Positions 572 through 37,084 of a stretch of 49,939 bases of DNA are shown in pieces. Position 1 is the first letter of the stretch, and each line of letters opens with the position of its first letter. The DNA comes from a bacterium (GTDB taxonomy: Bacteria; SZUA-182; DTGQ01; JAFGSM01). The stretch covers positions 1 to 49,939 of the forward strand of contig JBLIRP010000017.1 in NCBI GenBank assembly GCA_049472355.1. The letters are read 5' to 3'. The notes under the pieces are model-generated. The model searched no databases and was not told where the DNA came from. It worked only from the letters and a program-made list of their open reading frames with translations. The translations under genes and the position numbers were made by a program.

Positions 572-613
572 GTAATCATTACTATAGCACCGCATGAGCG
601 GAAAGGTCAAAGT

Positions 614-636
614 GCCTGCCGGCAGCGACGGCAGGC
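614..636 (-). terminator. Possible terminator hairpin after the first Gly/Tyr-rich gene
   Basis: GCCTGCCG-7 nt-CGGCAGGC inverted repeat about 30 bp past the stop codon; the U-tract is weak. Confidence 0.4.
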
Positions 637-664
637 CCTCAAATATGCCTATAGGAAAAGAGAA

Positions 665-1582
665 TCAGATAACCGCCGCAGCAATCAGTTCGAGAGAGAA
701 CGTCCCCGACTCTTGCGGCGTGGTATTGGGGAGCTTGTAGATATCGTAATACCCCTGCATGGTGGTCGGCGTGGGGAGCGGCGCCGTTATGGTAATCGCA
801 TAGCTCACGGTTGGATCCTGGCCGGTGAGCTGTACAAAGGTGGCGGTTCCTGACCCAAATACATTAAAAATGCCGGCGAAGGTATTATTCCCGATCAATT
901 GCGCCGTACCGCTAAGGCTGCCGGTCAATGGGTCCTCCTTGAGATTCATCACCATGGTGCCGAAAAGGAAGCCAAGATTCCACTGACCTATCCATGTGCC
1001 TGCCTGCTCCGCAACAAACGGATTATCCAGCGCTGCTGTGCTGAGGGGATTGGAGCCGAGCCCGGTCAGAAGCGAGCCGAGCCCGGTCAGGGAATTGAGC
1101 CCATACAGGCCGCCTTGACCGAGAAGGCCGAGCATTCCGCCAAGACCGTAAAGGTTGCCCGTGCCATAGAGCCCGTAGAGCCCACCCATGCCGTAAAGCC
1201 CACCGTAGTAGCCGCCGTAGAGCCCGCCATACATGCCATAGAGGCCACCATACAGCCCGCCCATGCCGTAGAGCCCGCCCATACCATAAAGCCCATACAG
1301 CCCGCCCATGCCGTAGAGCCCGGAGAGCCCCCCAAGACCGGAGAGCCCAAAACCGCCAAGGCTTGTGGTCAGATTGTAGATGCCGCCAAATCCGTATGGA
1401 TTCAAAAGGTTTTTCATCAATCCCGAGCTGTAAAGGGGATTCGATACGCTCGACAGGGCATAGATGGAGGACATGCCGTAATATGCATGCCCAGCACCGG
1501 GGCTCCACAATCCAATCATCCCGAATCCGATGACCGTGGCAACGATCAGCGGAATAATCCTTGCATAACAGTGCCGTTTCAT
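665..1582 (-). CDS. Secreted Gly/Leu/Tyr/Met-rich repeat protein with a conserved C-terminal beta-rich domain (paralog 1)
   Basis: Signal peptide ending AGHA|YYGM, many GGLYG/GMGG repeats, and a C-terminal ~115-aa domain (FVAEQAGTWIGQW...) shared with 1816..2739. SD GGAGG upstream. Confidence 0.85.
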   Translation of the reverse strand: MKRHCYARIIPLIVATVIGFGMIGLWSPGAGHAYYGMSSIYALSSVSNPLYSSGLMKNLLNPYGFGGIYNLTTSLGGFGLSGLGGLSGLYGMGGLYGLYGMGGLYGMGGLYGGLYGMYGGLYGGYYGGLYGMGGLYGLYGTGNLYGLGGMLGLLGQGGLYGLNSLTGLGSLLTGLGSNPLSTAALDNPFVAEQAGTWIGQWNLGFLFGTMVMNLKEDPLTGSLSGTAQLIGNNTFAGIFNVFGSGTATFVQLTGQDPTVSYAITITAPLPTPTTMQGYYDIYKLPNTTPQESGTFSLELIAAAVI

Positions 1583-1701
1583 CCCTAACCCTCCTTCATC
1601 TCCTAACCATAGATTTTATGAAAATAACCAATCAGGATATCCGGATTGTATTGTTTTTTTTATATCCCAACGGTGTATTTTCGATATTTTAAATACTATA
1701 A

Positions 1702-1717
1702 AGCAAGAATGGTGCCG
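1702..1717 (-). promoter_or_regulatory. sigma54 -24/-12 promoter element
   Basis: Minus strand reads CGGCACCATTCTTGCT (GG-N10-GC), 120 bp upstream of the 665..1582 start. Confidence 0.8.
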
Positions 1718-1721
1718 CATT

Positions 1722-1775
1722 AAAAAAGGGGTTGGTCCCCCCCCGTTCGATACCTCTCGAGGAAGGCCAACCCCT
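1722..1775 (-). terminator. Intrinsic terminator after 1816..2739
   Basis: Minus strand AGGGGTTGG...CCAACCCCT stem, extended by G-U pairs, followed by a T run. Confidence 0.65.
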
Positions 1776-1815
1776 CATATAAACCATAACGCCTGAGGCT
1801 ATATGTTCCTTTTGA

Positions 1816-2739
1816 TTAAATGACCGGGGCTATCAGCCCAAGGTCGATCGTCCCGGATTCCGTCACCGTGCCGCCACTGCTCAGGTTGATCAGATTATAG
1901 GTACCGGTCATATGATCAGGGGCGATCAGGATCCCAATGATCTGGAGTTCAAAGGTCATTCCGCCGAGCCCGGTCGCGGTGCCGCTCACAATGACCTGGG
2001 AATTGAGCGCCTGCCCGGCCACCTCGACAAGGGCACTCAATGTCGGGTTGCCGAGCAGTTGTGCGGTTCCGATGATACCCAGGAGTGGATCCTCGATCAG
2101 ATTCATGCTCATCTGGCCTCCCAGAAGGCCATTCGACCACGTTCCCAGCCAGGTCCCTGCCTGCTCTGCAATGAACAGGGGAATCAACGGGAGGATCGCG
2201 GATGCGGTTGCCGTCGGCGCCGGGGTGATGGTTGCGGTTGACGGGGATGTCATGAGGCTGGACAGCAGGCCTCCCATGCCCCCCATGCCATACAGGCCGC
2301 CGAGCATCCCGAGTCCGCCGAGACCGGTGAGTGCCCCCAGGCCGCCAAGGCCGCTGAGGCCGCTGAGGGCACCAAGCCCGCCAAGGCCGCCAAGGCCGTA
2401 TAAACCACCCATCATGCCATACAGCCCGCCGTACATTCCAAGGCCGCTAAGACCGCCAAGGCCGTATAACCCGCCCATCATGCCGTACAGCCCGCCGTAC
2501 ATTCCAAGGCCATAAAGGCCGCCAAGCCCGTAAATGCTTCTCAGGCCATAGAGCCCGCTCAGGCCCGAAAGCCCGCCGAGGCCGCCGAGGCCGTAGAGCC
2601 CGCCGAGGCCATAAAGGCCGCCGAGACCGGAGAGGCCGAACATACCGTAATAGGCATGTGAAAGTGATTCCAAGAAAAGAATCAGCAAGGCAATAAATAA
2701 CACCACTACCAAGAGCCTACCTAACCACGAAGAATTCAT
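1816..2739 (-). CDS. Secreted Gly/Leu/Tyr/Met-rich repeat protein with a conserved C-terminal beta-rich domain (paralog 2)
   Basis: Signal peptide ending [15 protein letters not shown] repeats, a Thr/Pro/Ala linker, then [13 protein letters not shown]... domain. SD AAGGAG upstream. Confidence 0.85.
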
Positions 2740-2982
2740 CGTACTACTCCTTGTCGCGATCCTGAATAATCAACCCTCTTTCTTTATGGATCTTTCTTGT
2801 TCGGTAAGGGACACCACGTCCGATTCCCAATCAATGGATCTTTAACGCAAAAAAATCCGTAACAATGGCCGTCATATCACCTCCTTACGCATTCAAGGAC
2901 TTCCAAAAATACTGCCCATCAAATAACGAGGAAAATTGTATTGTCTGGGATGGAAAGCATATGTATTGTCTGTAATCAATTT

Positions 2983-2998
2983 TGCAATCGTTATGCCA
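2983..2998 (-). promoter_or_regulatory. sigma54 -24/-12 promoter element
   Basis: Minus strand TGGCATAACGATTGCA, 244 bp upstream of the 1816..2739 start. Confidence 0.8.
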
Positions 2999-3256
2999 TC
3001 AGGTGGGTGAATGACGGAGTGTTTGCGTATCCATGTATCCCACGAGGCCGTAAATAGTAACTGCTTAGAAATAAATAAAAAATGACTAATACTTTTATAT
3101 TATTTCTAATAAAGTCTTTGTCTTATGGCAGATAATAACCGTATTGCATGATGATGCAGACATAGGATTTATGAAAATATAAGAATTTTTTATGATTTTG
3201 ACTTGTTCTCGTATGTAAGGGGTTAAAAAGCGGGAACAAACGGTCCTCTACGCTAT

Positions 3257-4963
3257 TTAAAACCACCTCCACCCTGAATTATTTGATGGCCATGGATATC
3301 TCCGGGCGGAGAAGGTCGATGGAAATGGAGACATGGAGGGTATCCCCCGAACAAAGACGCCGCTGAATGGCATATATCCGGGCATTGTCCAAGGTCCCTG
3401 TTGAAGGCCCTGCAAACGAGCGGGATAGGCCCCCATGGCCCCGAAGGGGGATGCACGGTATGAGGTGGGATTGAAGGGAACATACTGGATGACCGACTGT
3501 TTCATCCAGGGGGATCCCTGATACATGCCCACAACCCCTTCCCATGAAGGGGAGTACGCAAGGGGAGTACTCCCGGCGCTCACATACGCCCCATAGGGAG
3601 CAGAAAATGGGGGGAGAAGGGGCTGGAGCGGAGATACCGATGCCGCAGTGGCAATCACCGGTAATGACGCGAGCGCTGCGGCAGCATCAACAAGACCCGC
3701 CCCGAAGTATTGATCCCACCCGACTGCACCGATGTCTCGCGCAGTGCTTACCAATGTGGATTGTATCAAATCGGGACCGAGCGCCCCCCCTGTTGCTGCG
3801 ACGATCAAGGCGGCCACCCCTGTTACATGGGCCGCTGCGCAGGATGTTCCCTGAAAGATATAGTAGTCGAATGTCTGAAGGTCAATGCCGTTATGGGTCT
3901 GCTGGACAATCCCGTCGGGCTTGCCATCCAGATTTTGATCATAGGCCAGGCTCCCCCCCGGTGCACAGATATCGATGTCCGATCCGTAATTCGAATAGAA
4001 TGCCAATGTCTGATCGTATTTGATGGCGCTGACGCTGATGCACTCTGGGTAGGAAGAGGGATAATGGGGCGCTGAGGAGGCGCCGTTCCCTGCAGAGCAC
4101 ACCATGGTCACCTTGTTGAGATTCGCATAGGTTACCGCCTCTTCAAGGGTAAGGGAGGAGATAACGGTACCGAAACTCGTATTTATGATCTGTGCGCCGT
4201 TATCCACGGCAAAGTAGATCCCCGCAACCACATCATCAAGGAGCCCGTTGCTGTTTTCATCCAGGACCTTTATCGGCATAATGCTGCACCCAAAGGCCAC
4301 CCCTGCGCATCCGAGGAGATTGTTGGTCGTTTGGGCGATGGTGCCGGTAATATGCGTACCGTGCCCATGGTCGTCGTCAGGGTAAGGATCATCATTGACA
4401 AAGTCCCATCCCGGAAGGATGGCGGTCCCTGCAAGGTCCGGTGCCTGGGCATAGGGGAGGGCGTTTCGATAGGCGGCGCCGGTATCAAGAACCGCCACCA
4501 CAGCGCCGCTCCCATTCTGAACGTCCCAGGCCGTCTCCATATTGATCATCCCCAGATGCCATTGATAGATGTAAATGGGATCATTGGGCACGAATTCCGC
4601 CTCCACATAATAATTTGGCTCCGCGTACCGGACAAAGGGAAGAAGCTCCAGAAATGACGCAACCTGCTCAACCTCAACAGGCAATGCCAGGGTCACTGAA
4701 TAGAGCGGTATGGTATGGTGAAGGTGATGCCGCTCATGGGCGCCGCATGAATCGAGTATACCCTGGATATCCGAATAGCTTGCCCAGTCGACAAACCTGA
4801 CAAGGACCTCCTGAGGGGCATACAGTGGATGCGGCGCACATCTCATCGGAAAGGGCAGAAAGGCGAAGGACTCGACGCGGAAAAACAGGCAGAAGAGGAC
4901 ACCAAGGACACACCCTGGCCCCAGAATGACCGGCCATTTTCCTTTTCTCACTCCATCACCCAT
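3257..4963 (-). CDS. Secreted subtilisin-family (S8) serine protease with a low-complexity C-terminal tail
   Basis: Catalytic motifs VAVLDTG, HGHGTH, SAGN and GTSCAA; propeptide ending YAEPNY; N-terminal signal peptide; tail rich in P/G/S/Y/F/W/M. Confidence 0.93.
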   Translation of the reverse strand: MGDGVRKGKWPVILGPGCVLGVLFCLFFRVESFAFLPFPMRCAPHPLYAPQEVLVRFVDWASYSDIQGILDSCGAHERHHLHHTIPLYSVTLALPVEVEQVASFLELLPFVRYAEPNYYVEAEFVPNDPIYIYQWHLGMINMETAWDVQNGSGAVVAVLDTGAAYRNALPYAQAPDLAGTAILPGWDFVNDDPYPDDDHGHGTHITGTIAQTTNNLLGCAGVAFGCSIMPIKVLDENSNGLLDDVVAGIYFAVDNGAQIINTSFGTVISSLTLEEAVTYANLNKVTMVCSAGNGASSAPHYPSSYPECISVSAIKYDQTLAFYSNYGSDIDICAPGGSLAYDQNLDGKPDGIVQQTHNGIDLQTFDYYIFQGTSCAAAHVTGVAALIVAATGGALGPDLIQSTLVSTARDIGAVGWDQYFGAGLVDAAAALASLPVIATAASVSPLQPLLPPFSAPYGAYVSAGSTPLAYSPSWEGVVGMYQGSPWMKQSVIQYVPFNPTSYRASPFGAMGAYPARLQGLQQGPWTMPGYMPFSGVFVRGIPSMSPFPSTFSARRYPWPSNNSGWRWF

Positions 4964-5042
4964 GAACCGACTCTTCTCATCGCGTTATCGTATGATCGTC
5001 CTGATTAATCCTCCCGCATCAGGGGGACCGCATCAAAATACA

Positions 5043-5303
5043 TCAAAATCCCCACCAATATGGCCAAACAAAAGGTGCACCAAAGGGGTTGTAAGGCAAT
5101 CCTCCGAACCCGAAGGGTGTCACCCAGGACAAACCATACAGGGTACCATAGCGAAGGGTGCCATAATGATAAAAATCGCCGAGTCCCGAGGTGACCGGAA
5201 AATACCATTGTGCAACCGCGGAATGAACGGAAACGACCAGAACATGAAGACATATCAGGGCGCACACAATGCACCATACGATATAAACCCTCTTTGCATC
5301 CAT
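5043..5303 (-). CDS. Small secreted aromatic/Gly-rich protein
   Basis: Likely start at ATG 5303 (SD TGGAG; the ORF track starts at GTG 5330). Hydrophobic signal ending SAVA|QWYF; mature part rich in Y/W/F/G/P, ending PFVWPYWWGF. Confidence 0.7.
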   Translation of the reverse strand: MDAKRVYIVWCIVCALICLHVLVVSVHSAVAQWYFPVTSGLGDFYHYGTLRYGTLYGLSWVTPFGFGGLPYNPFGAPFVWPYWWGF

Positions 5304-5408
5304 CGTTAATTGCTCCAGTACATCCGGCACGGGAAGGATCGGAATATGGTGAGGTCCCCCCGCCTTTCAATATGTCCATAATGAATATATGGTCTCTCTT
5401 GTAAAGAG

Positions 5409-5424
5409 AGCAATATCAGTGCCA
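5409..5424 (-). promoter_or_regulatory. sigma54 -24/-12 promoter element
   Basis: Minus strand TGGCACTGATATTGCT upstream of the peptide-S8 protease unit. Confidence 0.85.
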
Positions 5425-5786
5425 GGACACTACACCCCGCTCCCTGGCATGCCAGCCTATCCTCGCCTGCTGTAAAGCGTCTTATACAAGCTATCTATCT
5501 GATTTGTATAGTTCAAATATCTTGTGCATGCGTGGTGCCGACAATACCCTCGACCACAGAGCGGTCATACCCCTGAGCACCCCGTATAGATTTTTCCCGA
5601 TGTCATAGGAATGATGCACAGGGGGGTCTTCCTGACTCGGGCACGGAGGGAAGATGGCATTCCACAACTGCGGGTGCGAATACTAGCAGTCTGGGGACCC
5701 TTACGGATAACGGCAAGGATTATTGCGGGGGATTTCGATGGGTGAGGATCAGGGGCAGTGTTGTATGATTTGCACAGATTGGCTCT

Positions 5787-6557
5787 TTACCCCTGGCGGG
5801 ATACGATAAAGGACTTGATCTGTTTTTTATGCGCCTGGGTCACATGTGAAAAGCATACCCCGAGATAGCGCCACGGCTCCGAGCTGTTGAACCGCTCCCA
5901 GCGGATTTCCCCCTCGATATTGAGGGGTGCCGTGGAAGTGGGGAGCAGGATATTGAGATACACGAACTCCGAGAGCTTCGCCCTGAAATCGGCACGAAAC
6001 ATGATGCCTTCCTGGCTCATGTTCACGGTCTTGGATACGTTCTCCTCGGAGGGGATATTCCCCAATGGTGAAACGAAGGTATACTTGATAGGGATATCCG
6101 CAGGGACCCGGAAATGCCTCCTCCGTTCCTTTGGAATTGCCCGTTCTTCATGGAGAGGGATCTGCGCCCCCCTTCGCTGTGATTTTTCTTCCTCGATCCT
6201 GTCCAATAGGGTGGGCAGGTTTTCAAGCAGGAGGGGCTTCAAGAGATAGTGATGCATTTTTTTCCCGGACACACAGTGTTTATCGATGTCACAATTCGGA
6301 TGAAAGAGAAAGACCACCTCGCTGGCGGGATTCATTCCCTTGATCTCTTCCGTGGTGAGCACATCCTCTTCCTGATCGAATTTCGAGATGCTCAGGAGGA
6401 CGAGATCGTACTGAATCCTCTGAAGCATCTGACGCGCTGTATTTGACTGGGTGGCGGAATCGACATAATGTCCATCCATCAGTAAGTAATTGCAAAGATA
6501 GTCCCTGAAGTTTACATCTCCGCTAACCACAAGAATAAACAGATCTCCCATGAGCAT
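5787..6557 (-). CDS. Pseudo-receiver plus PilZ domain protein (probable c-di-GMP effector)
   Basis: Receiver-like pattern (ILVVSGD...YDLVLLSI...YLLKP) without the phosphoacceptor Asp; PilZ motifs RRHFR (RxxxR) and NMSQEG (D/NxSxxG). Start placed at ATG 6557 by SD GAGGAG; ORF track extends to 6638. Confidence 0.82.
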   Translation of the reverse strand: MLMGDLFILVVSGDVNFRDYLCNYLLMDGHYVDSATQSNTARQMLQRIQYDLVLLSISKFDQEEDVLTTEEIKGMNPASEVVFLFHPNCDIDKHCVSGKKMHHYLLKPLLLENLPTLLDRIEEEKSQRRGAQIPLHEERAIPKERRRHFRVPADIPIKYTFVSPLGNIPSEENVSKTVNMSQEGIMFRADFRAKLSEFVYLNILLPTSTAPLNIEGEIRWERFNSSEPWRYLGVCFSHVTQAHKKQIKSFIVSRQG

Positions 6558-6743
6558 TCTTCTCCTCTGAAATTCCGTCATATATGACGTGCTTTTTGGC
6601 AATGGATAGGGGCGGCTTGCGCCGCCACCCCGATTCATAGAATCGGCCTACCCATTGGGGGGGGATTCGAAATGTCTTTTATATCTGAATATTGTCTCTT
6701 AATCTATTCTTTCCCCCTAGATCTTTATTCAGTTTTTATAATT

Positions 6744-6759
6744 TGCATATGCTGTACCA
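6744..6759 (-). promoter_or_regulatory. sigma54 -24/-12 promoter element
   Basis: Minus strand TGGTACAGCATATGCA upstream of the PilZ gene. Confidence 0.65.
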
Positions 6760-7011
6760 GATCATTAATACCGGAGAAAATTTTTTATATACCATGCTAA
6801 CTCATTATTATATTTGAAGTTTTAGCGATCTTCCGCCGTTCGCCCGGCACTGCGCACGGCCCCATCGGACATGGCTTTGCGGAATGATAGAGCGGAAGGT
6901 TTATGCGCCGGAGAGCGAGCAAGGGATAACATGTTCAAAAATAAGAGGTTATCTGGATTCTTATGACGGCATAAAAGAAATGATCATTTTAAAAGAATTT
7001 ATGAATGGTTT

Positions 7012-8037
7012 CTACATGCCTCGCGCACGCCGTCGCTCTTCGGGATCAAGTATATGGTGCTTGCGGATGAAGTAGCTCAGATTCCGCTGGTCGATCCCGA
7101 GAAGCTGTGCTGCGCGGCACTTTACCCAATCAGCCTTGTTAAGGGCCTTCAGGATGAGTTGCCGTTCGTAGGTCTTGAGCCTCCTCTTGAGGTTGAAATC
7201 CTCCAGTTCATTCGAGTCGTGATGATTACATCCATGCTGGAAGATGTGATGCGGGAGGGACTGAAGCTGGATAACGTCGGAATTCTCGATTATCACCGCA
7301 TGTTCTATTGCATTTTTCAATTCCCTGACATTTCCGGGCCATTCATAGTTCATCAATGCATCCATGGCCTCATTGCTGATTCCCCGCATACTCTTTTTGG
7401 TCTCATAGTTCTCAAATTCGATAAAATTCTTCACCAGCAGCGGGATGTCATCCTTTCGCTCCCTGAGCGCGGGGAGGAATATGGTTATTACGCCAAGCCG
7501 ATAAAAGAGATCCTCCCGAAAGGCACCCTGCTGCACCGCCCTTTTGAGTATCACGTTGGTGGTGGCGATCACCCTCACGTCAACCGGGATAGGGATTGAA
7601 TTGCCAACCGAGACAATCTCATTCTCCTGAAGGACCCTCAGCAGCTTTGCCTGCCCTGAAAAGGACATGTTTCCGATTTCATCCAGGAGTATGGTACCGC
7701 CGTTCGCCAGCTCGAATCTTCCCTTCCTGCTCTCGCACGCGCCGGTAAACGCCCCCTTCTTATGCCCGAAGAGTTCACTCTCGAGGAGCGTTTCACTGAG
7801 TGCGGCACAATTGACCTTGATAAAGGGCCTGTTATTTCTCCTGCTGCTCGCATGGATGGCATTCGCTACCAGTTCCTTGCCAGTCCCGCTCTCGCCCTGG
7901 ACCAATACGGTGGAATCCGTTCTCCCCACCATCTTGATCAACCGGCATACCTCGCGAATCTTTGTATTTCTGCCAAGGATATTGCTGACCTCACATTCGA
8001 GACTGACGGGCATGACCTTCCCCCTTTGGTACATCAA
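7012..8037 (-). CDS. sigma54-dependent enhancer-binding protein (AAA+ and Fis-type HTH) without an N-terminal regulatory domain
   Basis: GESGTGKE Walker A, ESELFGH, GAFTGA, LLDEIG Walker B, FREDLFYRL, WPGNVREL and C-terminal AAQLLGI HTH. Only about 20 aa precede the AAA+ domain (start could be 8013). Confidence 0.95.
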   Translation of the reverse strand: MMYQRGKVMPVSLECEVSNILGRNTKIREVCRLIKMVGRTDSTVLVQGESGTGKELVANAIHASSRRNNRPFIKVNCAALSETLLESELFGHKKGAFTGACESRKGRFELANGGTILLDEIGNMSFSGQAKLLRVLQENEIVSVGNSIPIPVDVRVIATTNVILKRAVQQGAFREDLFYRLGVITIFLPALRERKDDIPLLVKNFIEFENYETKKSMRGISNEAMDALMNYEWPGNVRELKNAIEHAVIIENSDVIQLQSLPHHIFQHGCNHHDSNELEDFNLKRRLKTYERQLILKALNKADWVKCRAAQLLGIDQRNLSYFIRKHHILDPEERRRARGM

Positions 8038-8310
8038 AATTAATAATACTATATTGCTTACCGTGTTCTTATGGGCATCATAACCACAAGCAAAACTAAC
8101 AATACATGTTATTCATTATTCACGATGGCTGTATAAATCTATCGAACAAAATCAATTAATAATTGCGTTCCTCCAGTGATCATGATGTCCTTTTAAAGTA
8201 TACAAACATGGGTAATTGATAGGATACAAACATCATTTTTTTAACCGAAGTTAGTTTTTAAAATTTGTCCATCATAATCGACAATTGTTACAATTTCTTT
8301 TTATACATCA

Positions 8311-8326
8311 AGCAATTCAAATGCCA
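8311..8326 (-). promoter_or_regulatory. sigma54 -24/-12 promoter element upstream of the activator gene itself
   Basis: Minus strand TGGCATTTGAATTGCT. Confidence 0.78.
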
Positions 8327-8350
8327 AATAACAGGAGAAATTGATACAGG

Positions 8351-8363
8351 TAACTTACTGATT
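8351..8363 (-). promoter_or_regulatory. Probable IHF binding site
   Basis: Minus strand AATCAGTAAGTTA matches WATCARNNNNTTR, about 25 bp upstream of the -24 element. Confidence 0.55.
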
Positions 8364-8422
8364 TATCAGCATGTCAATTTGTTGCCACAATAGGGTATTG
8401 TTATCTGTTTACATTATGCGCA

Positions 8423-8440
8423 AAGATATGCGCATATCTT
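8423..8440. promoter_or_regulatory. Perfect 18-bp palindrome, candidate upstream activator sequence
   Basis: AAGATATGCGCATATCTT, about 100-115 bp upstream of the sigma54 element at 8311-8326. Confidence 0.5.
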
Positions 8441-8573
8441 GATTTTTATGAATGGGTCATACCTTTAGGGATGATAAAAGTGAAGGGACTATGATGTGAG
8501 CTGATGCAGGGGTAAATGGATCAAGCAGTGAATTGGAATGAGATGCCCATCGGGTGAGGATGCCGTATACATT

Positions 8574-8610
8574 AAAAAAGGGCGGCGGGTTTGCTGTTCC
8601 CGCCGCCCTC
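8574..8610 (-). terminator. Intrinsic terminator after the 1767-aa surface protein gene
   Basis: AGGGCGGCGGG-9 nt-CCCGCCGCCCT stem with an A6 run on the plus strand (U-tract on minus). Confidence 0.85.
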
Positions 8611-8647
8611 TGTATGTCTCTATCAGAAATGCACGAGGGACGCCCTC

Positions 8648-11600
8648 TCAGTAGAAGAGGAGGTCGTCAACGGCAATCCTCCCGCCGATCCAGACACGCT
8701 CGACCGAGCTGGCGCCTACACCGGCGAAGATCTTGCCCATGACCGTATCGAGGTTCCGCTCGATGGTCTGCCATTCTCCATTGGTGAGACCAGGGCCGAG
8801 GAAGTAGTAGGCATAGTTCCCACGGCGATATTCGTAGGTGTCGGCGGTGCCGCCGTTCACGAATCCTATCGTAAACGGCAGTCCCAGGGTGTCTTCGATG
8901 TCCACCCAGATGACGAAGTTGTTCTCCGTCTTTATCCTGCAGCTCATGCCGGTCACATCGGTCACCGTAGTGATATCCCTGTACACGTTGTACCTGTCAG
9001 GGTAATCACCGGACGGATCGAGCACCATCACATTGCTCTGGACAGCATCGTCCGGCTCTGCGGTGAGGGTGGCGCCGGTGGCCGGATAGAGCGACCACCC
9101 GGAGGTGTCGTCGAAGGTATCAAGATCCTTGAATGCACGGGGTGTGGCGGAAACCGACACGCCCCTGCTCTCTTCACCCTCGACCACCTGCATGACGGTA
9201 AAGGTGTAAGGCGAAGTTCTGTTGTTCTGCAGGCCGCTCCTCGTATAGGTGAAGTTGTTCGTACCAGTGATCTGGTAGATCTCCATGTCCGGATCAACGA
9301 GGTTCGTATCGATGAAGAGCTTCGTATAGTCGATCTTATTGGGATCGGCAACGGTCCAACTCAACATCACAAGTTCGTCTCCGGCACGCGCGGTCAGGTT
9401 TTGCACGTCAGGCACACCCTCGCCGAGTGCAATATCGTCGGTGTCGAGTGTCCCGCGCAGAAGCACGCCGAGCAGGTTAACGAAACCAACCGCATCGTTC
9501 GTTGCAAAACGGAGGTCCTCATCCAGATTCCTCTGCAGGGGATACCACTCGGTAGCGCTCTTGCCGCTCCAGCCCAAACGATACTTGTACCAACCGGTCT
9601 GTTCTTTGCCAACATAGCTGTCCGCGGTGGCATTCTTATTCCCTTCGTAACTCAGGAAGTAGCCCTTGCCGTCCGTGCCCCTGACATAGGCGTCAACCCT
9701 GAAGATACCATTCGACCTGATCCGCATGCTGAGCACCGGGTTTGCGTACTCTTCAGGACTGCTCAGCCACTTGGTGACAATGTAGTTGAGTCCGGCGCTG
9801 CTCGTCATCTTCAGGAAGTAATTGTTATCTTCAGCCTTACGCGCGGTGGAGCCGGTTCCCTGCAGCCTGTACCACCCCTTTTGCAGGAGGCTCTCTCCTG
9901 ATGCATAGCCGGCATCGAAGTCATCGACCAGTGTTGTGGTCGGGGTGCTCAGGGTGATAACGACCTTTCTCCCCTCGGAGAGATTCTCCGGTGAGGCCGT
10001 ATCCACGGCCTTTAGCGTAAAGGCGTAGTCATCCCCATAATCCAGGGGATTGAAGTCTTTATCCTTGGTGATGTAGTAGGTGAAGTTGCCCTGCGAATCC
10101 GCTTTGCTTGCAGACACCAGTTCCTTCACGCAGGTGTCGCATCCCCCGGAGACACAGTCGCAGTAATAGATATAGTAGCCCTTCAGATCCTGGTGCTGAC
10201 CTGCCGGGTTATTCCAGGTCAGCTTTATTCTCCGGAACTCCTGCTCCGCCTGGAGGTTTTCAGGCGGCAGGGGTATGGTGGCCTGCGCCTTCGCGCTTAC
10301 CCTCACTCCACCGCTCTCGTTAGGCGTTGGCTTGCTGTCATAGGCAGTCACCATGAAATGATAGGTGAGGCCGTTGGTCAGCCCGGTGGCCGAATAGGAG
10401 GTAGCGGTCTTTGCAACGCTCCCGATGCGATTCGCCGGGTCCTTTGCAGGGGGTTCACCCTGTTTCCTGTAGATATAGTATCCCGCAATGTATTCGGATT
10501 GTTCTGCGGGAAGCTGCCACTGCAGTGAGACCTGGTTCTCGTTCCCCTGGGCCGTGAGATTGACCACGTCCTTGAGGATCGGTGGAGGCCCTGCGGAATG
10601 AACGCTGATGTCATCGATAAGGTCGATGTCGCCCCGCAGCAGGATGCCCTTGAGATAGTGGTACCGGTAGCCGGTCGCGTTGAAAAGATCCTCATCCATG
10701 TTCCTGCTCACCGTCTTTCCGTTCGGATCGATGAACTCCGCACCGATCTTGCAGGTCACGTATCGTCCGGAAACGCTGCACTCATCTGCCGGATCCTGTG
10801 GCACGTAGCGGATGAAAAAGTTGGATTCAGTGCTTCCCTTTACCGCATTCACATAGGCATCGAAGTAGTACAGGTTTGTGTCCTTGATGAAGAAGTTGAT
10901 CTTCGGGTAATCGGCGTTAAACGCATTGCTCGGTATCGACTTGGTGATGATGTAATTGAGCTGGCTGTTATTCGAGGGCGTGGTCTTCATCTTCGTCTGG
11001 AGAAAACGGTTCACATTTGAATTGGCATCGATCTCCTGTTTTTTGAGCATCTCACCCGATCCCTGCAGCCAGTACCATCCCTTTGCAGTGAGACTCTCCG
11101 TATATTCGAAGTCATCCACCGTGGTCGCCGGGATCTGGATGACGAAGGTGACCAGCTTCTCGGCGCTCTTATTGGGGGTGCCGCTGTCGGTGACCACGAA
11201 TTTCACCCTCACCCTGCCCGGCGAACCGTATCCGAAATCAACCGAAGAGCTGTCGATAGGCGGCATTGCAGTGAGCACGGGCGGGGTAGCGCCGGCATCA
11301 AAGTCCAGCCACTCCTCCACCAGCGGATCATTGGGATCGGCGTAGTTCGGATCGAGGGTAAAGACAAGCGGGGTATCTCCATCGGGATCGCTTGCGATCA
11401 CCTCCACGACGAAGGTTTGCCCCTCGCTCCAGAGCTGCTCCTCGGCGCTCGGGCTCGTCTCCATGACCGGCGGCTGGTTGTTGATGTTGATATCCGCCGA
11501 ATTCACGTTGATCGAGGCCGTCCCGTCCGTAGCGGTCACCGAGCAGTACCAGGTCTCATCCTGGTCGGTCAGGGCGGCCTGAAGGGTGAAGCTGGTTGCG

Positions 11601-13951
11601 GTGATTGCCCCGGATGATACCGGCGATTTCTTGGCGTTCTTCTCGGTCCATTCATAGGTGTAGTGAATGGTATCCACCCCGTCGGTCACATCCTGATCGG
11701 TCGGCACGGTGGTCACCGTGCACACCAGGCTATCGTCGTCGGTGGCATTGGGACTCGGGGCCACCTGCACGGCAAGCCCTGAAGGCGCCGAGTTTTCGAT
11801 GGTGACCGCGGTCGCCGTTGCCGAGCTTGCACTGAAGGCGCCGGAGCCATCCTTGGCCCTCACCGAGCATGACCAGGAGTCGCCCTTGCGGGTATTGCTT
11901 GCGATCAGGGTGTCGGTGGTTGCCCCCTGCGCCAAGGTATGGACCACATCGGCCTTCCCCGAGCAGGACCAGGTGAACTCATACTGCATGATGGAGACAT
12001 CCTCCGGGTCGATATCCACCGGCGATGCCGGGCTCACGGTGCAGGTAAGATTCTGCCCGGAGGTCGCCGGCGACGGTGCGCCAGAGTATGTTATAGACGC
12101 ACCAGCAGGGGTGTTCGGAGGCGTGTTGTTTATAGTCGCGGTGGTCGAGCTGGCCTGAGTCGAACTTGCCGCTTCACCGTCCCACGCCCGCACCGTACAT
12201 GTCCATACGTGGCCCTTTCCGGTCTCGGAATCCTCAAGCGTATCGGAAAGAGCGGTTTTGGGTCCATGCTCGATGGATGCCTTTCCTCCGCAGTTGGTGC
12301 AGGACCATACGTAGTAGTAATCAAGCGGCGAATCTTCAGGATCGGCATCCGTTGACGATGTTCCGATGGTGCAGGTAATATCGTGAGTGGTATCCGTACT
12401 ATTCGGGTCGACCGTGACATTGCCCGGTGCGGTAGGCAACGAGTTCCGCACTTCCACCGGATCTGAATCTATCGGGTCTGCGGAACCGTCCTTGTCCTTC
12501 ACCGTCACGCGGCAGTAATACTCCTTCCCCTTTTCCGTCTGCGATATGGGTAGGGTATTGGTAAACGCGGTGCTGTTCGTGTCCGTGAGGATGCTCACGT
12601 TATCTTCAAACCATTCGTAATCGTACAGGAGCGTATCACCAGTATCGGGATTCTTGATCGAGTTGGGATCCACCTTGCAGATAATCTCATCATCGGTATA
12701 CGGTTCCGCAGGCTCAATGGTCGGCTTATCCGGTTGCGTCGGAGGGCCGTTCAGGACTATCACCGTAAAAATCGCCTCATCCTCCATGCCTTCGACATCA
12801 GCCGCCGTGATTTTAATCTCCCGGTGAAATCCGCCAACCGGTGACGGCCATACAATTTGGACGCAGTTCGTGTCCCCGGAAACGGTTTGTAAGTTCATAC
12901 CATCAGGCTCGTCGATGAGATCAAATGTAACAGCAGCTCCTTCGGGGTCATAGGCGCACACCTGTGGTAGATTCGAACTGTAGTAGGCAGGGATATTCGT
13001 ATTCTCTGGATCTGTCTTGTCTGGCTCGTCAAGGGTAAGATTTGGTTTCTGGTTGTGATACAGGACAAGCTGGTTATAGCCGGACAAGCATCCCATATCT
13101 ACTGTTGGAATATGTGTTAATATGCAACTAGGTGCATTACTGTTTTGTGGATTAATCAATTGGTATGGGAATGTTGTATTGATAATCCGTTGCCCGACAT
13201 TATTGCCAGCGACCTTTCCTCCGAATGCAATAATCTTGATTGGATGATTCGTGGGGGAAGTCACCCAATCCATATATCCTCCCCCCGTTGTTCGAAGCGA
13301 ATTTAACAGAATATTCACTATCGAACCTGACGGCCACCCATTATTTCCTCCTGAAACAGGATAATTCCCACCTGCAGCTACAATCACGAGTGCCCCATCA
13401 CTAATTATATTTGAAGATGCTATACTGCCTTCATACAGGATGAATCTAAGGAACCCATTATTAGTAGGAGACGCTGTCTGACTCGGCTCCGTTTTCACCT
13501 CCAACAACGACCCAAATGGCGGATAATCGATATTTGTTGCGCTTCCTGTAACACGCGAACGCGTTTGGACATAATATGTTTTCGGGTCTGTCGGAAGATT
13601 GTCGACGACGGCCTGCATAATCCCCCGCTGTTGGGCAAGGGTGGGATCTGCACTGCCATCCCAGGGCGTTACTGTGTATCCTGAAACAAGGGTAGGAGAC
13701 GATGTATTGTTCTCGTAAACCAAGACATCGCAGTAATCGCTTTCTTCATCTACCTCCCAGACAACACTAAATTTTCCGACAGTCACATCATAGATATAGA
13801 CATCTCCAACAGGCTGTCCGGAAATAGCTGGATGGGTAAAGCAGAGTGCCAAAGCAATTGCCATAAAAAAGGGCAGAATTTTTAGAAAAATGCCCTTCTC
13901 TCTCTTCACCCAGCATTTTTTATTTCTCATTATACACCTGGGACCATGCAT
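8648..13951 (-). CDS. Large secreted/surface protein with Ig-like, cadherin-like and FN3 repeats and three copies of an uncharacterised domain
   Basis: N-terminal signal-like segment; four ~100-aa repeats (N-x-x-P...C...Y-x-W...C-x-V...DG); DPEG/DPDG cadherin-like units; FN3 units (V-x-L-x-W...Y-x-F-x-V); three DDF...RN(L/M)D...DD(I/L) domains. Confidence 0.88.
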   Translation of the reverse strand: MHGPRCIMRNKKCWVKREKGIFLKILPFFMAIALALCFTHPAISGQPVGDVYIYDVTVGKFSVVWEVDEESDYCDVLVYENNTSSPTLVSGYTVTPWDGSADPTLAQQRGIMQAVVDNLPTDPKTYYVQTRSRVTGSATNIDYPPFGSLLEVKTEPSQTASPTNNGFLRFILYEGSIASSNIISDGALVIVAAGGNYPVSGGNNGWPSGSIVNILLNSLRTTGGGYMDWVTSPTNHPIKIIAFGGKVAGNNVGQRIINTTFPYQLINPQNSNAPSCILTHIPTVDMGCLSGYNQLVLYHNQKPNLTLDEPDKTDPENTNIPAYYSSNLPQVCAYDPEGAAVTFDLIDEPDGMNLQTVSGDTNCVQIVWPSPVGGFHREIKITAADVEGMEDEAIFTVIVLNGPPTQPDKPTIEPAEPYTDDEIICKVDPNSIKNPDTGDTLLYDYEWFEDNVSILTDTNSTAFTNTLPISQTEKGKEYYCRVTVKDKDGSADPIDSDPVEVRNSLPTAPGNVTVDPNSTDTTHDITCTIGTSSTDADPEDSPLDYYYVWSCTNCGGKASIEHGPKTALSDTLEDSETGKGHVWTCTVRAWDGEAASSTQASSTTATINNTPPNTPAGASITYSGAPSPATSGQNLTCTVSPASPVDIDPEDVSIMQYEFTWSCSGKADVVHTLAQGATTDTLIASNTRKGDSWSCSVRAKDGSGAFSASSATATAVTIENSAPSGLAVQVAPSPNATDDDSLVCTVTTVPTDQDVTDGVDTIHYTYEWTEKNAKKSPVSSGAITATSFTLQAALTDQDETWYCSVTATDGTASINVNSADININNQPPVMETSPSAEEQLWSEGQTFVVEVIASDPDGDTPLVFTLDPNYADPNDPLVEEWLDFDAGATPPVLTAMPPIDSSSVDFGYGSPGRVRVKFVVTDSGTPNKSAEKLVTFVIQIPATTVDDFEYTESLTAKGWYWLQGSGEMLKKQEIDANSNVNRFLQTKMKTTPSNNSQLNYIITKSIPSNAFNADYPKINFFIKDTNLYYFDAYVNAVKGSTESNFFIRYVPQDPADECSVSGRYVTCKIGAEFIDPNGKTVSRNMDEDLFNATGYRYHYLKGILLRGDIDLIDDISVHSAGPPPILKDVVNLTAQGNENQVSLQWQLPAEQSEYIAGYYIYRKQGEPPAKDPANRIGSVAKTATSYSATGLTNGLTYHFMVTAYDSKPTPNESGGVRVSAKAQATIPLPPENLQAEQEFRRIKLTWNNPAGQHQDLKGYYIYYCDCVSGGCDTCVKELVSASKADSQGNFTYYITKDKDFNPLDYGDDYAFTLKAVDTASPENLSEGRKVVITLSTPTTTLVDDFDAGYASGESLLQKGWYRLQGTGSTARKAEDNNYFLKMTSSAGLNYIVTKWLSSPEEYANPVLSMRIRSNGIFRVDAYVRGTDGKGYFLSYEGNKNATADSYVGKEQTGWYKYRLGWSGKSATEWYPLQRNLDEDLRFATNDAVGFVNLLGVLLRGTLDTDDIALGEGVPDVQNLTARAGDELVMLSWTVADPNKIDYTKLFIDTNLVDPDMEIYQITGTNNFTYTRSGLQNNRTSPYTFTVMQVVEGEESRGVSVSATPRAFKDLDTFDDTSGWSLYPATGATLTAEPDDAVQSNVMVLDPSGDYPDRYNVYRDITTVTDVTGMSCRIKTENNFVIWVDIEDTLGLPFTIGFVNGGTADTYEYRRGNYAYYFLGPGLTNGEWQTIERNLDTVMGKIFAGVGASSVERVWIGGRIAVDDLLFY

Positions 13952-14079
13952 TATAAATCCTCCTTTCGCAGGATAAGACGCTTCGATATGATATTGTAAT
14001 CATAAGCCTTTTTAGCGAATAGCTTTAAAATTTGAGTTTTTTCAAAATCTTAAGTCTGTTTATTGGTAGTAATTCCCCT

Positions 14080-15573
14080 TTAGTTTGAAAATGGATCCCA
14101 AGAAGTAACATCGCTTGTTGTAACAATTTTTGCAAAATAGAATTGCGCATTTTGCATGAAGTACACGCTGTCAGTAACCCATTGTTCTGTAACAGGATTG
14201 TAATAACGGGTGGTCGGCCACTGCCAATCCTTTTGTTTATTATCAAATACATTAATAAGCTGAACGCTTCCTTGACCAAGTCTTGCTTCTATATCCAACA
14301 ATAAATTTTCAGTAGTATAATATGCAGGTAATTGCGTAAAGGTAACCAAGTTATTCCCATTTCTCAATCGTACGGAAACGGACTCGGGCTTGCCATAAAA
14401 TGTTACCTCCCCCGTCATGTCGACTGCCATAATAATGAAGCATCCCTGACCTGCCTGAATCTCCTCGCTATCTTCAATTACGTATTGTTCCAGCACTGGA
14501 TTATACGCCTTGTACGTCGGGTAATTATACCTCTGCCCATTATTGTCCCATAAGTAGATGTAAATGACATGGCTTTCTTCATTATCACCTACCCCATCCG
14601 CCCGGTCTATGTCCTTTAAAAGATCCCCGGTGGTGTATCCCTCAGGCAGCTTGAAGGGTAATGAGAAACAATTCAATCCCTTGGTGAATTTAAAGCTCGC
14701 CGAGACCTTCGGCATCATGATCGGCTCCCCGTTCACCTTGTCAATCGATTCCACCCGGCCCCAACTGATCACATAATGATTCGGGTCTTCCGTGCTTTTC
14801 CCTAATATTTCCTGAGTGCCGCACACGATCGTGAACTTGATCATCTCCGCCCCTTGGAGCTGCAAGGGGAATTTATAATTGTCACCTGACGCGTATCCGC
14901 CGAACAGGTTGTTCATTTCGATAAGGGCATACTGTTTATATGACGGATTGTTGGGATCGTAGGTCGTTGATTCTCCCCCCGGTAATCCATCACCGACCCA
15001 TGCAGAAACTGAATAATCGCTGAGCTGTGTGGTACCGCTGGAATCATAGATATCCGCGAGCACCAGGGCACCGAGCGCAGGACTCGTGCCGTCGGCCTTC
15101 TTGAAGACTGCCTTGTGCACCACATCGTTGCTCACGATGTCGTGGTCATTCGGGTCGTTCGACGCCAGGCCCCTGAGGCTTTCAGTGGTTACCTCGCTGT
15201 AATGGAAAGGGGTTCCGCTGTCCTGGGTGACCCCGAAATGATATGTCGTGCCATAATCCAGCCCCACGACGCTTACCTTGGCAATCCCGAAATCCTTCCC
15301 ATCCTCTCCGGGTTGGCCGTCAGTGGTATCCATTATGATTTGATTGGGATTTAAGGCGACCTCAGTACTGTGGCTGCCATCGGTATAGAGTTTGATGCCG
15401 CAGCTTGTATACGTCCCCTCGGTCGTCCAGACCACGCTGAACATCTTGGTCGTCACGTCGCAGATGAGCGGCGGCTGAAGGGTTGCGGCATTGACCTGCG
15501 TCAGGAAAAAAAGAAATGGTGAAATAGCAACAATCACAAAAAAAATCCTCTTCCATCCCCTCGGGCAACTCAT
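14080..15573 (-). CDS. Secreted protein with an FN3-like N-terminal domain and a duplicated C-terminal module
   Basis: Signal peptide ending VNA|ATL; N-terminus homologous to that of the 1767-aa protein; two C-terminal repeats (G-x-N...YTT-x-x-LL-x-DI...YNPV-x-EQ). SD AAAGGAGG. Confidence 0.85.
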   Translation of the reverse strand: MSCPRGWKRIFFVIVAISPFLFFLTQVNAATLQPPLICDVTTKMFSVVWTTEGTYTSCGIKLYTDGSHSTEVALNPNQIIMDTTDGQPGEDGKDFGIAKVSVVGLDYGTTYHFGVTQDSGTPFHYSEVTTESLRGLASNDPNDHDIVSNDVVHKAVFKKADGTSPALGALVLADIYDSSGTTQLSDYSVSAWVGDGLPGGESTTYDPNNPSYKQYALIEMNNLFGGYASGDNYKFPLQLQGAEMIKFTIVCGTQEILGKSTEDPNHYVISWGRVESIDKVNGEPIMMPKVSASFKFTKGLNCFSLPFKLPEGYTTGDLLKDIDRADGVGDNEESHVIYIYLWDNNGQRYNYPTYKAYNPVLEQYVIEDSEEIQAGQGCFIIMAVDMTGEVTFYGKPESVSVRLRNGNNLVTFTQLPAYYTTENLLLDIEARLGQGSVQLINVFDNKQKDWQWPTTRYYNPVTEQWVTDSVYFMQNAQFYFAKIVTTSDVTSWDPFSN

Positions 15574-15809
15574 TGGATGGATCCTCCTTTCATTCGCTTG
15601 AAAGTGTCAACAATTTCGGGTCACGTATAGACCGGCTAACCGAAATTGACGACTTACGTAAGAAATTACTTACTCCTCATCCGATCGCTCGAAATGCGTG
15701 TAATCTATTTGTCAATAGCGCAGGATGCCGGAGCATTCAATTATGTATCACATTTGTTCTGTTGTATCGTTTCCCCCCTTGGTATACGGTTTCACGTAAT
15801 AGATAATGA

Positions 15810-15825
15810 AGCAAGATTAGTGCCA
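15810..15825 (-). promoter_or_regulatory. sigma54 -24/-12 promoter element
   Basis: Minus strand TGGCACTAATCTTGCT, 237 bp upstream of the 14080..15573 start. Confidence 0.85.
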
Positions 15826-16201
15826 TATATTTTATGAATACAACACCTGATTCCGAATATTTTCACTGGTTATAAGGTTAAGATAGCATAGTAAATAAAT
15901 GACCGGTCCCCTTATCCTGCTCATGCTGGGAGCAGGTATACAAAAACATTCACAAGTATGCATTGCACTACATAATAACCATGCATCTCTTTGCATAGGT
16001 GTTTGACAAGAGGGAAATATATATACGGTTACCCAAAATGACCATCATCGGAATGCTTCTGGAGGAGCAAAACTACCCTACAATCAAGAGGTTTAAGTAA
16101 ATACCCAGTAAAATACCATTTTTATTAAAGTTAAAAAATTACATCCCAATTATAACAATTAAAATCTTCCATGTCAATCGGTTATCATATATTTTATAAG
16201 G

Positions 16202-35375: not shown

Positions 35376-35470
35376 TCATTTCCACGTGTTGAAAATGGAT
35401 GGCGAGCAAAATTGCTGATCACTTTTCCTTGCCGTGACGCGTATGCAATTGAAACTGTGACATAATTTCT

Positions 35471-36016: not shown

Positions 36017-36305
36017 TGCGTGGCGGATTTACGATCTACCACCCCTTTTGCAGCCCATTGGAATAAATAAACCATGAATGGCGATTATGCAATGTAATTC
36101 ATTCATTGGAAGCGTTATAAATTCAAGGGGTATGTAAAGTGATGCGGGAAGATATGAAAGGCTTTTCATACTATCATGCATTTTATCTGCCGGTCATGCG
36201 ATTGTTAGAGGAGAATTTGTCATTCGACATACTCATTATAACTATTAAATTATTGTTTCATTATACGTCTTTATGTTCGATAAAAAAAAGGGGGAGACTC
36301 CCTAT

Positions 36306-36321
36306 CGGCATAAAAATTGCA
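36306..36321 (+). promoter_or_regulatory. sigma54 -24/-12 promoter element
   Basis: CGGCATAAAAATTGCA, 269 bp upstream of the 36590 start. Confidence 0.72.
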
Positions 36322-36589: not shown

Positions 36590-37084
36590 ATGAAGAAAGG
36601 TATTTTGTTTGTTTGCATATTGGTAATCGCTCTTGGCCTTTGTTTCTCCGGAGCACAAGCCTACTATGGCGGCTATGGCGGCCTTTTGGGCGGCTATGGC
36701 GGATATGGCGGCCTTTTGGGCGGACTCTATGGTGGACTCTATGGCGGACTGATGGGCGGACTCTATGGCGGACTGATGGGCGGACTCTACGGTGGCTATG
36801 GCGGCCTTTTGGGCGGATATGGCGGGTATGGCATGTACGGCAGTATGTACAGCCCGTTCGGCTTCCATAACCTCTACTATCCTGTGCAAACGGCCGGTGG
36901 GCTGACCTATCAGGTACCGTTCCTGCAGATTGCTCCTCTACTGGGTGTTGCCGGATTGTATAACCAACTCTTCCCGAATCTGTTTAATCCTCAGCCGCAG
37001 CTTCCACCTATTGTCAATGTGAGCACACCGACCTCATTGGGGGTAACCTTCCCCACTCCGGTTGGTACCTTTTCGATAACCTGA
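36590..37084 (+). CDS. Secreted GGYGGLL/GGLY-repeat protein with a Pro-rich C-terminus
   Basis: SD GGAGG; signal peptide ending GAQA|YYGG; GGLY/GGLM/GGLL repeats. Confidence 0.88.
   Translation: MKKGILFVCILVIALGLCFSGAQAYYGGYGGLLGGYGGYGGLLGGLYGGLYGGLMGGLYGGLMGGLYGGYGGLLGGYGGYGMYGSMYSPFGFHNLYYPVQTAGGLTYQVPFLQIAPLLGVAGLYNQLFPNLFNPQPQLPPIVNVSTPTSLGVTFPTPVGTFSIT

Follow-up and report, generated by a model that had tools for sequence, protein, structure and literature searches.

Positions 665 to 15,825 of contig JBLIRP010000017.1 hold a block of minus-strand genes whose transcription units are preceded by sigma54-type -24/-12 sites; the whole stretch of 49,939 nucleotides that we analysed is referred to as the window. 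The original prediction, made from the letters of this DNA, saw in the block one sigma54 programme exporting Gly/Tyr-rich structural proteins. Comparison across 13 genomes of the order and seven class kin suggests that the block is likely the conserved core of an order-wide gene set, marked by sigma54-type motifs together with one of two palindromic boxes.

The gene content of the block is as first described: a sigma54 activator, a protein with receiver-like and PilZ domains, an S8 protease, exported proteins of 497 and 1767 aa, and Gly/Tyr genes. A 305-aa protein (665..1582) has a predicted signal peptide, an uncharged Gly/Leu/Tyr arm and, by sequence and model, a C-terminal eight-stranded avidin-like barrel; its 307-aa paralogue (1816..2739) has the same build, with a barrel 42% identical. 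Then come an S8 subtilase with a prodomain (3257..4963; PF00082, PF22148) and a tail of low complexity, rich by composition in Pro, Ser, Gly and aromatic residues; an 86-aa predicted exported Gly/Tyr/Phe/Trp-rich protein (5043..5303); a pseudo-receiver, its acceptor Asp replaced by Ser, joined to a PilZ domain (5787..6557; PF07238 above cut-off); and a sensor-less sigma54 activator, here called type A (7012..8013), with a GAFTGA-bearing AAA+ domain and a Fis-type helix-turn-helix (HTH), assigned by PF00158, alignment and synteny. A 1767-aa predicted exported protein (8648..13951) with FN3 domains, four immunoglobulin (Ig)-like repeats and three modules termed "DDF", and a 497-aa predicted exported β-rich protein (14080..15573) complete the block. 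Outside it, on the plus strand, lies a gene for a 164-aa predicted exported Gly/Tyr protein without a barrel (36590..37084).

Sigma54-type sites in the window and the genome

The seven GG-N10-GC elements of the original prediction were all recovered, each a unique 16-mer where it had been placed. Six are on the minus strand, named here by their lowest plus-strand coordinates, and all seven are intergenic, 135 to 313 bp 5' of a same-strand gene with a sequence resembling a ribosome-binding site (RBS). The sites at 1702..1717 and 2983..2998 (position weight matrix (PWM) scores 17.8 and 16.3) are kept in relatives. That at 5409..5424 (21.2), after which the 86-aa gene comes first and the protease next, also precedes the protease orthologue in G005, G008 and G009. 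The site at 6744..6759 (14.8) is present in 8/8 orthologous loci, the activator's own site at 8311..8326 (19.5) has a counterpart in all eight orthologues, and that of the large-protein operon at 15810..15825 (19.6) recurs in nine of 14 homologous loci. The seventh, at 36306..36321 on the plus strand, scores 16.8. The expected conservation of the neighbourhood was borne out, since G001 and the more distant G004 retain all six block sites, in G004 amid diverged flanks; the sixth site there reads AGGCATCATTTATGCT.

The pattern is far above chance. It has 96 intergenic matches in the 3.49-Mb genome, whereas 20 shuffles gave a mean of 7.75 (maximum 12) and wrong spacer lengths gave 11 to 25; within positions 1-16200 the correct spacer gives 7 matches and the wrong ones 0, 1, 0 and 0. 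Of 1121 operon heads in the genome, 82 have a site, and no stretch of neighbouring site-bearing heads is longer than that in the window (5, the next longest being 2; at least 5 in 5 of 2000 shuffles), as counted with a crude gene caller that misplaced the start of the 1767-aa gene. The genome encodes rpoN (E 1e-132).

Sigma54 is nevertheless a broad regulator here, and its motif alone defines no regulon, because PF00158 has 32 matches in the genome (25 at E below 1e-50) and there are 108 strong intergenic sites, some of them before unrelated genes; relatives in the order have 66-192 pattern matches per genome. Other sites precede what we take, from sequence, to be genes for a type IV pilin-like protein, two LpxC-like proteins, kinases and response regulators, and one lies before an ECF-type (extracytoplasmic function) sigma factor gene. 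Strong sites accompanied by neither of the boxes described below include, in G000, those at C96:825, C138:61326 and C61 near 39030, which precede two LpxC-like genes and a type IV pilin-like gene. Such breadth may be likened to the 36 sigma54 regulons reported for Desulfovibrio (PMC4641369).

Within this broad use, sites are enriched before exported Gly/Tyr genes, as predicted. A matrix built from 74 sites that lie neither in the window nor near Gly/Tyr genes places a site within 500 bp of 15 of 54 exported Gly/Tyr genes, compared with 41 of 844 non-exported genes (p 1.8e-7) and 22 of 160 other exported genes; on the wrong strand the counts are 1, 17 and 3, respectively. Extending the distance to 700 bp gives 21 of 53. 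The enrichment is real, yet most of the Gly/Tyr family is not directly under a detectable site, and the upstream regions of 26 Gly/Tyr genes without one share no motif beyond the RBS and AT-rich words.

An eighth site (42497-42512, minus strand), absent from the original list, lies at the start of a sulfatase-TPR gene; two PEMT/ICMT-like membrane genes are divergent from it, and a box 1-like element is found at 42684-42696. PEMT/ICMT-like membrane genes also occur near a protease-barrel cluster in G008 and G009.

Two boxes and two activator paralogues

The first box, CATA-N5-TATG (box 1), became visible as words kept in an alignment of the six block promoters with G001 and G004. It is also the top de novo palindrome on 26 promoters, picked after these words had been noticed, with an information content of 9.58 against 7.08-7.55 in shuffled sequence. 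Exact copies lie 50-220 bp 5' of a sigma54 site in 13/13 order genomes and 2/7 class kin. The enrichment is specific for spacer, position and tandem arrangement in three families: five genomes have 42 matches, versus 9 with spacers 3 and 4 and 7 with spacers 6 and 7, and 11 of 24 site rows have a partner box at a distance of 21 bp. A matrix built from other families reaches at least 11 at 7/26 promoters of low-complexity exported genes, 4/82 other sigma54 promoters and 6/250 controls, and ranks promoters 6744, 2983 and 5409 as 2, 5 and 12 of 108. Out of 16 strong barrel paralogues, one of which was excluded at a contig edge, 11 of the remaining 15 have a sigma54 site, and 10 of those 11 have box 1. 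In 30 loci the gene after box 1 often encodes an exported Tyr/Gly/Pro low-complexity protein, and otherwise an S8 protease, a receiver-PilZ orthologue or unrelated proteins.

In the block, a tandem pair of boxes 21 bp apart (6970..7003) lies directly past the activator's stop codon, before the rank-2 promoter; it is exact in G008, G010, G011 and G012, and an exact tandem in G007. Promoter 2983 has an exact box, CATAAATCCTATG (3161..3173), at -175, also exact in G004, and promoter 5409 has one with a single mismatch (5604..5616) at -192. At the activator's own promoter there is a weak box (8438..8450, at -124; PWM 4.9); at the same spot G004 scores 14.4, and G008, G009 and G011 have nothing above 0.4. 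The exact palindrome of the first barrel gene, CATAAAATCTATG (1608..1620), lies 97 bp 3' of the 1702 site and recurs exactly at +100 in G004; downstream activator sites have been reported for sigma54 promoters (PMC4641369). All of these are on the minus strand.

The second box, TATGAA-N6-TTCATA (box 2), precedes sigma54 sites in 11/13 order genomes and 0/7 class kin, counted with its one spacer, the wrong-spacer control being specific to box 1. An exact copy (36153..36170, plus strand) lies at -153 of the seventh site, ranks 4 of 108 and is exact in G001, G003 and G004; a degenerate tandem (15957..15997, minus strand) lies at -149 and -172 of the 15810 site. Among 14 loci of the 497-aa family, all nine with a sigma54 site have box 2 at -146 to -173 with at most two mismatches. 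At the same tolerance box 2 is found at 10/10 promoters of a second activator type (type B, below), at 0/8 of type A and in 18/424 control windows. Genes that box 2 marks elsewhere include those for S8 paralogues and for a GGDEF-like protein whose GGDEF motif is missing. No third motif emerged clearly when a sampler was run on 24 promoters that lack box 1.

Promoters 15810 and 36306 have box 2, and the other block promoters box 1. A predicted activator site of either kind accompanies five promoters, lying downstream at one, and the site at the activator's own promoter is weak. Because the boxes mark nearly separate promoter sets, the block appears to comprise two sub-regulons. A single regulon under the block's own activator was rejected, as no one box occurs at all seven promoters; of the single co-regulated programme first proposed, the sigma54-type sites and the conserved block stand, but the six promoters split between two boxes. 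The seventh site, said to precede a related gene, does precede a Gly/Tyr gene, but has its box in common with the large-protein operon and not with the Gly/Tyr-barrel genes. The two boxes are apparently undescribed palindromic operators, and sigma54 co-regulation defined by them is, on this sequence evidence, highly probable.

The activator of the block has neither an N-terminal sensor nor a receiver domain in domain profile searches. Sensor-less sigma54 activators, such as PspF, are usually active once made. In Chlamydia a bare ATPase domain is reported to activate transcription (PMC7482065). In 8/8 genomes that have it, the type-A gene follows its own sigma54 site, and after it come box 1, another sigma54 site and the pseudo-receiver/PilZ gene. 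Its paralogue, type B (contig C116), is 60% identical, has the HTH sequence GIDRRNLGYF where type A has GIDQRNLSYF, and occurs in 11/13 order genomes. In a tree of 28 rows, from which four loci without a parsed GAFTGA were excluded, type B is a clade (100/99), and two type-A groups and G013 stand at an open fork; the label type A therefore rests on synteny and the HTH. An activator without a sensor domain but with its own sigma54 promoter suggests a cascade, probably one of two activator steps. Two further activator paralogues, L115 (G004:C69:37395-38363) and L111 (G014), still have the HTH but no longer GAFTGA or the acidic pair of Walker B, and could be DNA-binding anti-activators.

Predicted exported proteins of the block and the order

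A six-frame scan of the genome gave 70 Gly/Tyr-rich frames, 55 of them with a signal-peptide-like start. DNA coding for YGG(L/M/I/F)YG occurs 17-217 times per genome in 13/13 order genomes, is absent from the seven class kin and is found 0-3 times in 61 other genomes; judged by sequence, the Gly/Tyr proteins are an order-specific family with about 55 members in this genome. Gly makes up 33-46% and Tyr 10-35% of their arms, which have 0-3 charged residues and hardly any Cys; six proteins contain the run YGGLYGGLYGG. Predicted mature N-termini are stereotyped (YY or YF in 19/55, Q-aromatic or QT in 11/55). Similar arms also occur in fusion with Kazal domains (nine), I42 inhibitors (two), an alpha-2-macroglobulin and a carbohydrate-binding domain. 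The window proteins at 665, 1816, 36590 and 44401 match no Pfam family, in scans where low-complexity queries lose sensitivity, and those at 665 and 36590 match no NCBIfam family; an atlas search gave one match of 0.76 for protein 36590, below lead level. The 86-aa reading frame was missing from the earlier reader's list; it is 93% identical in G001 and was not found in G004. Three more predicted exported Gly/Tyr genes lie in the window, at 34914-36016 (plus strand) and 44401-44895 (minus strand); the two that were scored have no sigma54 site within 500 bp, and 44401 has none by pattern.

The barrel domain of proteins 665 and 1816 is found in 13/13 order genomes and 0/28 others. It has only 190 matches among 1.84 billion representatives, the weakest being small barrels of other bacteria, and no Pfam or PDB sequence match. 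The predicted model (predicted local distance difference test (pLDDT) score 87.8) has eight antiparallel strands, with GxWxGxW in the first, and is near avidin-like folds. Outer-membrane barrels score similarly by shape (OmpA, Z 11.9); the faces of the model alternate in the way of a soluble barrel, the inside hydrophobic and the outside polar.

Between sigma54 site and barrel gene, four operons are headed by a gene for a 92-120 aa membrane-anchored protein with the motif Y-x-x-C-x-C-x-FPDEILDL and no Pfam family (in G000, C56:37143-37520, C71:6995-7381, C79:28913-29374 and C62:42952-43341). This small CxC protein may be a factor for assembly or metal binding. We considered and discarded riboswitches as an explanation for long leaders of some 600 nt, since Rfam found just three tRNAs in the window and six loci, and three of the leaders hold the small CxC gene. 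In an eight-gene cluster of G006 (L026, C12:70000-89900), a Pro/Trp-rich "QNWxxLPPYNTLWPLW" module takes the place of the Gly/Tyr arm; several genes have multiple barrels, four sigma54 sites are intergenic, and two exact copies of box 1 stand before the first.

Canonical PilZ motifs are RxxxR and D/NxSxxG. The PilZ domain of the block has RRHFR and NMSQEG and is a predicted receptor of cyclic di-GMP (c-di-GMP). The 1767-aa protein has about a dozen full-length relatives, and a profile of its three DDF modules matched only the protein itself among 2980 crude gene calls; one relative, P0190 (47% identical, 94% covered), is labelled Promethearchaeota archaeon and lies on a 4.2-kb contig, perhaps through misbinning or transfer. 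The 497-aa protein is order-specific (12/13 order genomes, 0/7 class kin), and its model (pLDDT 78) is mostly β, with two similar C-terminal α/β repeats. Adjacency to the protease is kept in G004, G005, G008 and G009; the synteny of the block breaks between families.

A perfect sigma70-type promoter (TTGACA-17-TATAAT with extended TG; 16149..16177, minus strand), kept in G001 and G004, points into the block. Between it and box 2, a short stretch with a CTCC run (16040-16080) is conserved in G004, and the region behind the sigma70 site folds no better than shuffles (z +1.46). Among RNA runs, only X1 holds 0.09 of the words, and X2, X3, X4 and X6 hold next to none. Of 30 bins, 24 are covered by contigs of one run; long pieces, two of which show no differences, lie over 8620-15694, and a contig of another run covers 5013-5229 exactly. 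The middle of the protease, the PilZ gene and most of the activator are uncovered, gaps that carry no weight.

As to export, profile scans found no dedicated secretion gene in the block. G000 has five secretin matches, and the window holds what we take from sequence to be lipopolysaccharide (LPS) genes; together these make type II export possible. Flagellin was not found in G000 or G001. Tyrosinase was found in none of five genomes, in a search in which no control genome matched either. At the far end of the window (48440-49939, minus strand), one frame combines an FN3 domain, a GGCFI motif and an outer-membrane barrel; it matches the MXAN_2561 and MXAN_2562 families below cut-off and looks like a fused sorting-associated pair.

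Interpretation and known systems

The explanation that we favour as a whole, and hold somewhat more readily than we doubt it, is a box-defined gene set under a two-step cascade that builds a self-assembling extracellular Gly/Tyr matrix or sheath. In a first step, an activator binding box 2 would turn on the operon with the FN3/Ig surface protein, 36590 and other short Gly/Tyr genes, protease paralogues, the degenerate GGDEF protein and the sensor-less type B (C116). In a second, types A and B, whose recognition helices are nearly the same and which would be active once made, would bind box 1 and switch on the Gly/Tyr-barrel genes, the S8 protease and the pseudo-receiver/PilZ protein, the last tying output to c-di-GMP. 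After Sec export, the GGLY arms could condense by tyrosine stacking and glycine-rich packing, in the manner of squid suckerin and beak proteins; the soluble barrels would be compact hubs in the matrix, and proteases and protease inhibitors would be lodged there by their own arms. The product may be a coat, sheath or matrix outside the cell.

Several observations weigh against this explanation. In G005, block order and box 1 are retained, and of type A there is only a remnant of 31 residues; G007 has the exact tandem box 1 ahead of its receiver-PilZ gene, and the 1.5 kb upstream contain no activator; and in G006, with 12 box 1 matches, neither type A nor receiver-PilZ was found. These genomes are 93-98% complete, and since they retain box 1 with no intact type-A gene found, type A appears dispensable for it; that the block activator is present wherever box 1 is has been ruled out. 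Exact box 2 matches number zero in G005 and G006. In G000 alone, exact box 1 is mildly enriched (7/100 versus 12/473, p 0.033) and box 1 with one mismatch is not (18/100 versus 68/473, p 0.36). G013 has seven box 1 matches but no barrel or YGGLYG match, so box 1 is not tied to Gly/Tyr proteins. No sigma54 site lies within 700 bp of 32 of the 53 exported Gly/Tyr genes, and nine more have neither box; the signal peptides were called by a crude rule of our own. No consensus for integration host factor was found between box and promoter at six window promoters. The large-protein operon is also preceded by the conserved perfect sigma70 promoter, so it may be read constitutively as well. The RNA evidence is cover by assembled contigs without a silent-region control, and DNA carry-over is possible; promoters and export are predicted from sequence, and passage across the outer membrane is our inference. 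The sequences would be explained most simply if box 1 were read by both of the sensor-less paralogues and box 2 were the mark of an earlier tier, served by type B itself or by another activator.

Alternatively, this cascade could serve timed differentiation, its product being the coat of a dormant cyst or of a cell resembling a spore rather than a matrix around growing cells. Putting sensor-less activators behind sigma54 promoters would make the cascade switch-like, activator cascades are reported to drive Myxococcus development (PMC9765219) and sigma54 the conversion of Chlamydia (PMC7482065), the many paralogues, proteases and inhibitors suit a layered coat, and an ECF-type sigma factor gene has a sigma54 site. 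However, the arms have almost no Cys, a multicopper oxidase was not found in four of five genomes searched, and the large-protein operon has its conserved sigma70 promoter and is covered by bulk RNA libraries, so that we regard a dormant coat as unlikely.

More doubtful still is that the six promoters are ordinary sigmulon members served by several unrelated activators, with boxes that are AT-rich noise or another regulator's sites and a clustering that is historical. The roughly 108 sites, the 25 strong activator genes, the 66-192 sites per order genome, the unenriched one-mismatch box 1 and the synteny breaks between families would all fit. They are countered by the spacer-, position- and tandem-specific enrichment of box 1 in three families, its presence at 10 of 11 barrel promoters and the clean sorting of box 2 by activator type.

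We give a similarly low probability to periplasmic proteins that envelop a storage or mineral inclusion, as SgpA-C do in Allochromatium. Sgp proteins are described as hydrophobic, Sec-exported, keratin-like and paralogous (PMC10386293), and the block has no dedicated secretion gene. On the other side, none of 20 genomes has dsrA above cut-off, a cut-off that no control genome passed either; the four window Gly/Tyr proteins scanned have no Pfam family; co-regulation with the 1767-aa FN3/Ig protein and the subtilase points outward; and about 55 paralogues here compare with at most six sgp genes in that source (PMC10386293). It is very improbable that the arms are precursors cut by the co-regulated subtilase into signal or antimicrobial peptides, or sacrificial protease decoys: the conserved protease adjacency and stereotyped N-termini would suit this, but the repeats differ in length and order and show no pattern of leader and core, the protease and inhibitors carry such arms themselves, and the block has no modifying enzyme.

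Box-defined sigma54 control gives an uncultured lineage a concrete and testable trait, a sigma54 regulon with two operator sequences, whose candidate activators need no signal and should be easy to rebuild in E. coli, together with a large exported low-complexity family whose repeats match a studied animal biomaterial. If the assembly is true, it would be a bacterial route to suckerin-like material, a candidate for the unidentified protein part of sediment biofilm matrix, and a low-complexity tag that addresses enzymes to an extracellular condensate. A bolder reading, which we hold to be less likely than not, is a bacterial "suckerin" system that defines this order of uncultured sediment bacteria, in which dozens of GGLY proteins on avidin-like hubs would form a tough extracellular material, the repeat would be an addressing tag for proteases and inhibitors, and a two-tier sensor-less sigma54 cascade would be in control; both the biomaterial and the developmental switch would then be undescribed.

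Family scans and the literature gave no named system of this composition, in agreement with the original prediction, and we found no published description in the open-access literature. The nearest regulatory design is that of PEP-CTERM/exosortase with PrsK-PrsR (Haft et al. 2006, PMC1569441), where RpoN-dependent pepA is reported to act in floc formation (PMC9850573), and it sets a precedent for an enhancer and sigma54 before an exported matrix-protein family. Both systems have a paralogous exported family, mostly in single-gene units behind long intergenic regions with an enhancer motif and a -24/-12 site, in sediment and biofilm organisms and with a matrix role, presumed here; the PEP box, however, is a single one that contains TTTACA, and its chains are Ser/Thr/Asn-rich, whereas there are two other boxes and uncharged Gly/Tyr arms here. 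Membership was rejected on the sorting tail and the receiver domain: TIGR02595 has no match in 23 proteins scanned and two elsewhere in the genome, and the block activator, with no receiver domain, scores 323 bits on TIGR02915, below the PrsR cut-off of 502.6. Exosortase, found in 12 of 21 genomes searched, was not found in G000 (88% complete) or G001 (97%).

The cascade of Myxococcus xanthus (Nla28, Nla6, ActB) likewise has activator genes under sigma54 promoters, tandem sites and envelope targets, but Nla28 is reported as a two-component response regulator on direct 8-bp repeats, in contrast to sensor-less activators and palindromes (PMC9765219); the likeness is in logic only, known here from sequence alone. 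Chlamydia trachomatis sigma54/CtcC shares envelope remodelling and activation by an ATPase domain without its regulatory domain, and differs, as reported, in its one phosphorylated activator and unrelated targets (PMC7482065). The sulfur globule proteins SgpA-C are also Sec-exported, hydrophobic, keratin-like structural paralogues, and far more paralogues, barrel and enzyme fusions and sigma54 control set the present family apart from their description (PMC10386293). The curli reading is weak: in G000, CsgG matched long proteins in part only (positions 41-99 of 210), and there was no curlin match. The barrels have, by model, the fold of avidin/streptavidin-like barrels (agroavidin 8amh, Z 11.8; the QHNDH alpha domain 1pby, Z 13.1; the PvdP N-terminal barrel), at no more than 17% identity and with no family match. 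The arms most resemble squid suckerins and histidine-rich beak proteins, which have GGLY repeats and whose tyrosine-driven coacervation is documented for GHGLY repeats; the exact YGGLYGGLYGG run falls within a suckerin amorphous domain quoted in that source (PMC11931252). In the animal proteins the repeat is paired with Ala/His-rich crystalline blocks, and here with a globular barrel or an enzyme; we regard the likeness as convergence and claim no homology.

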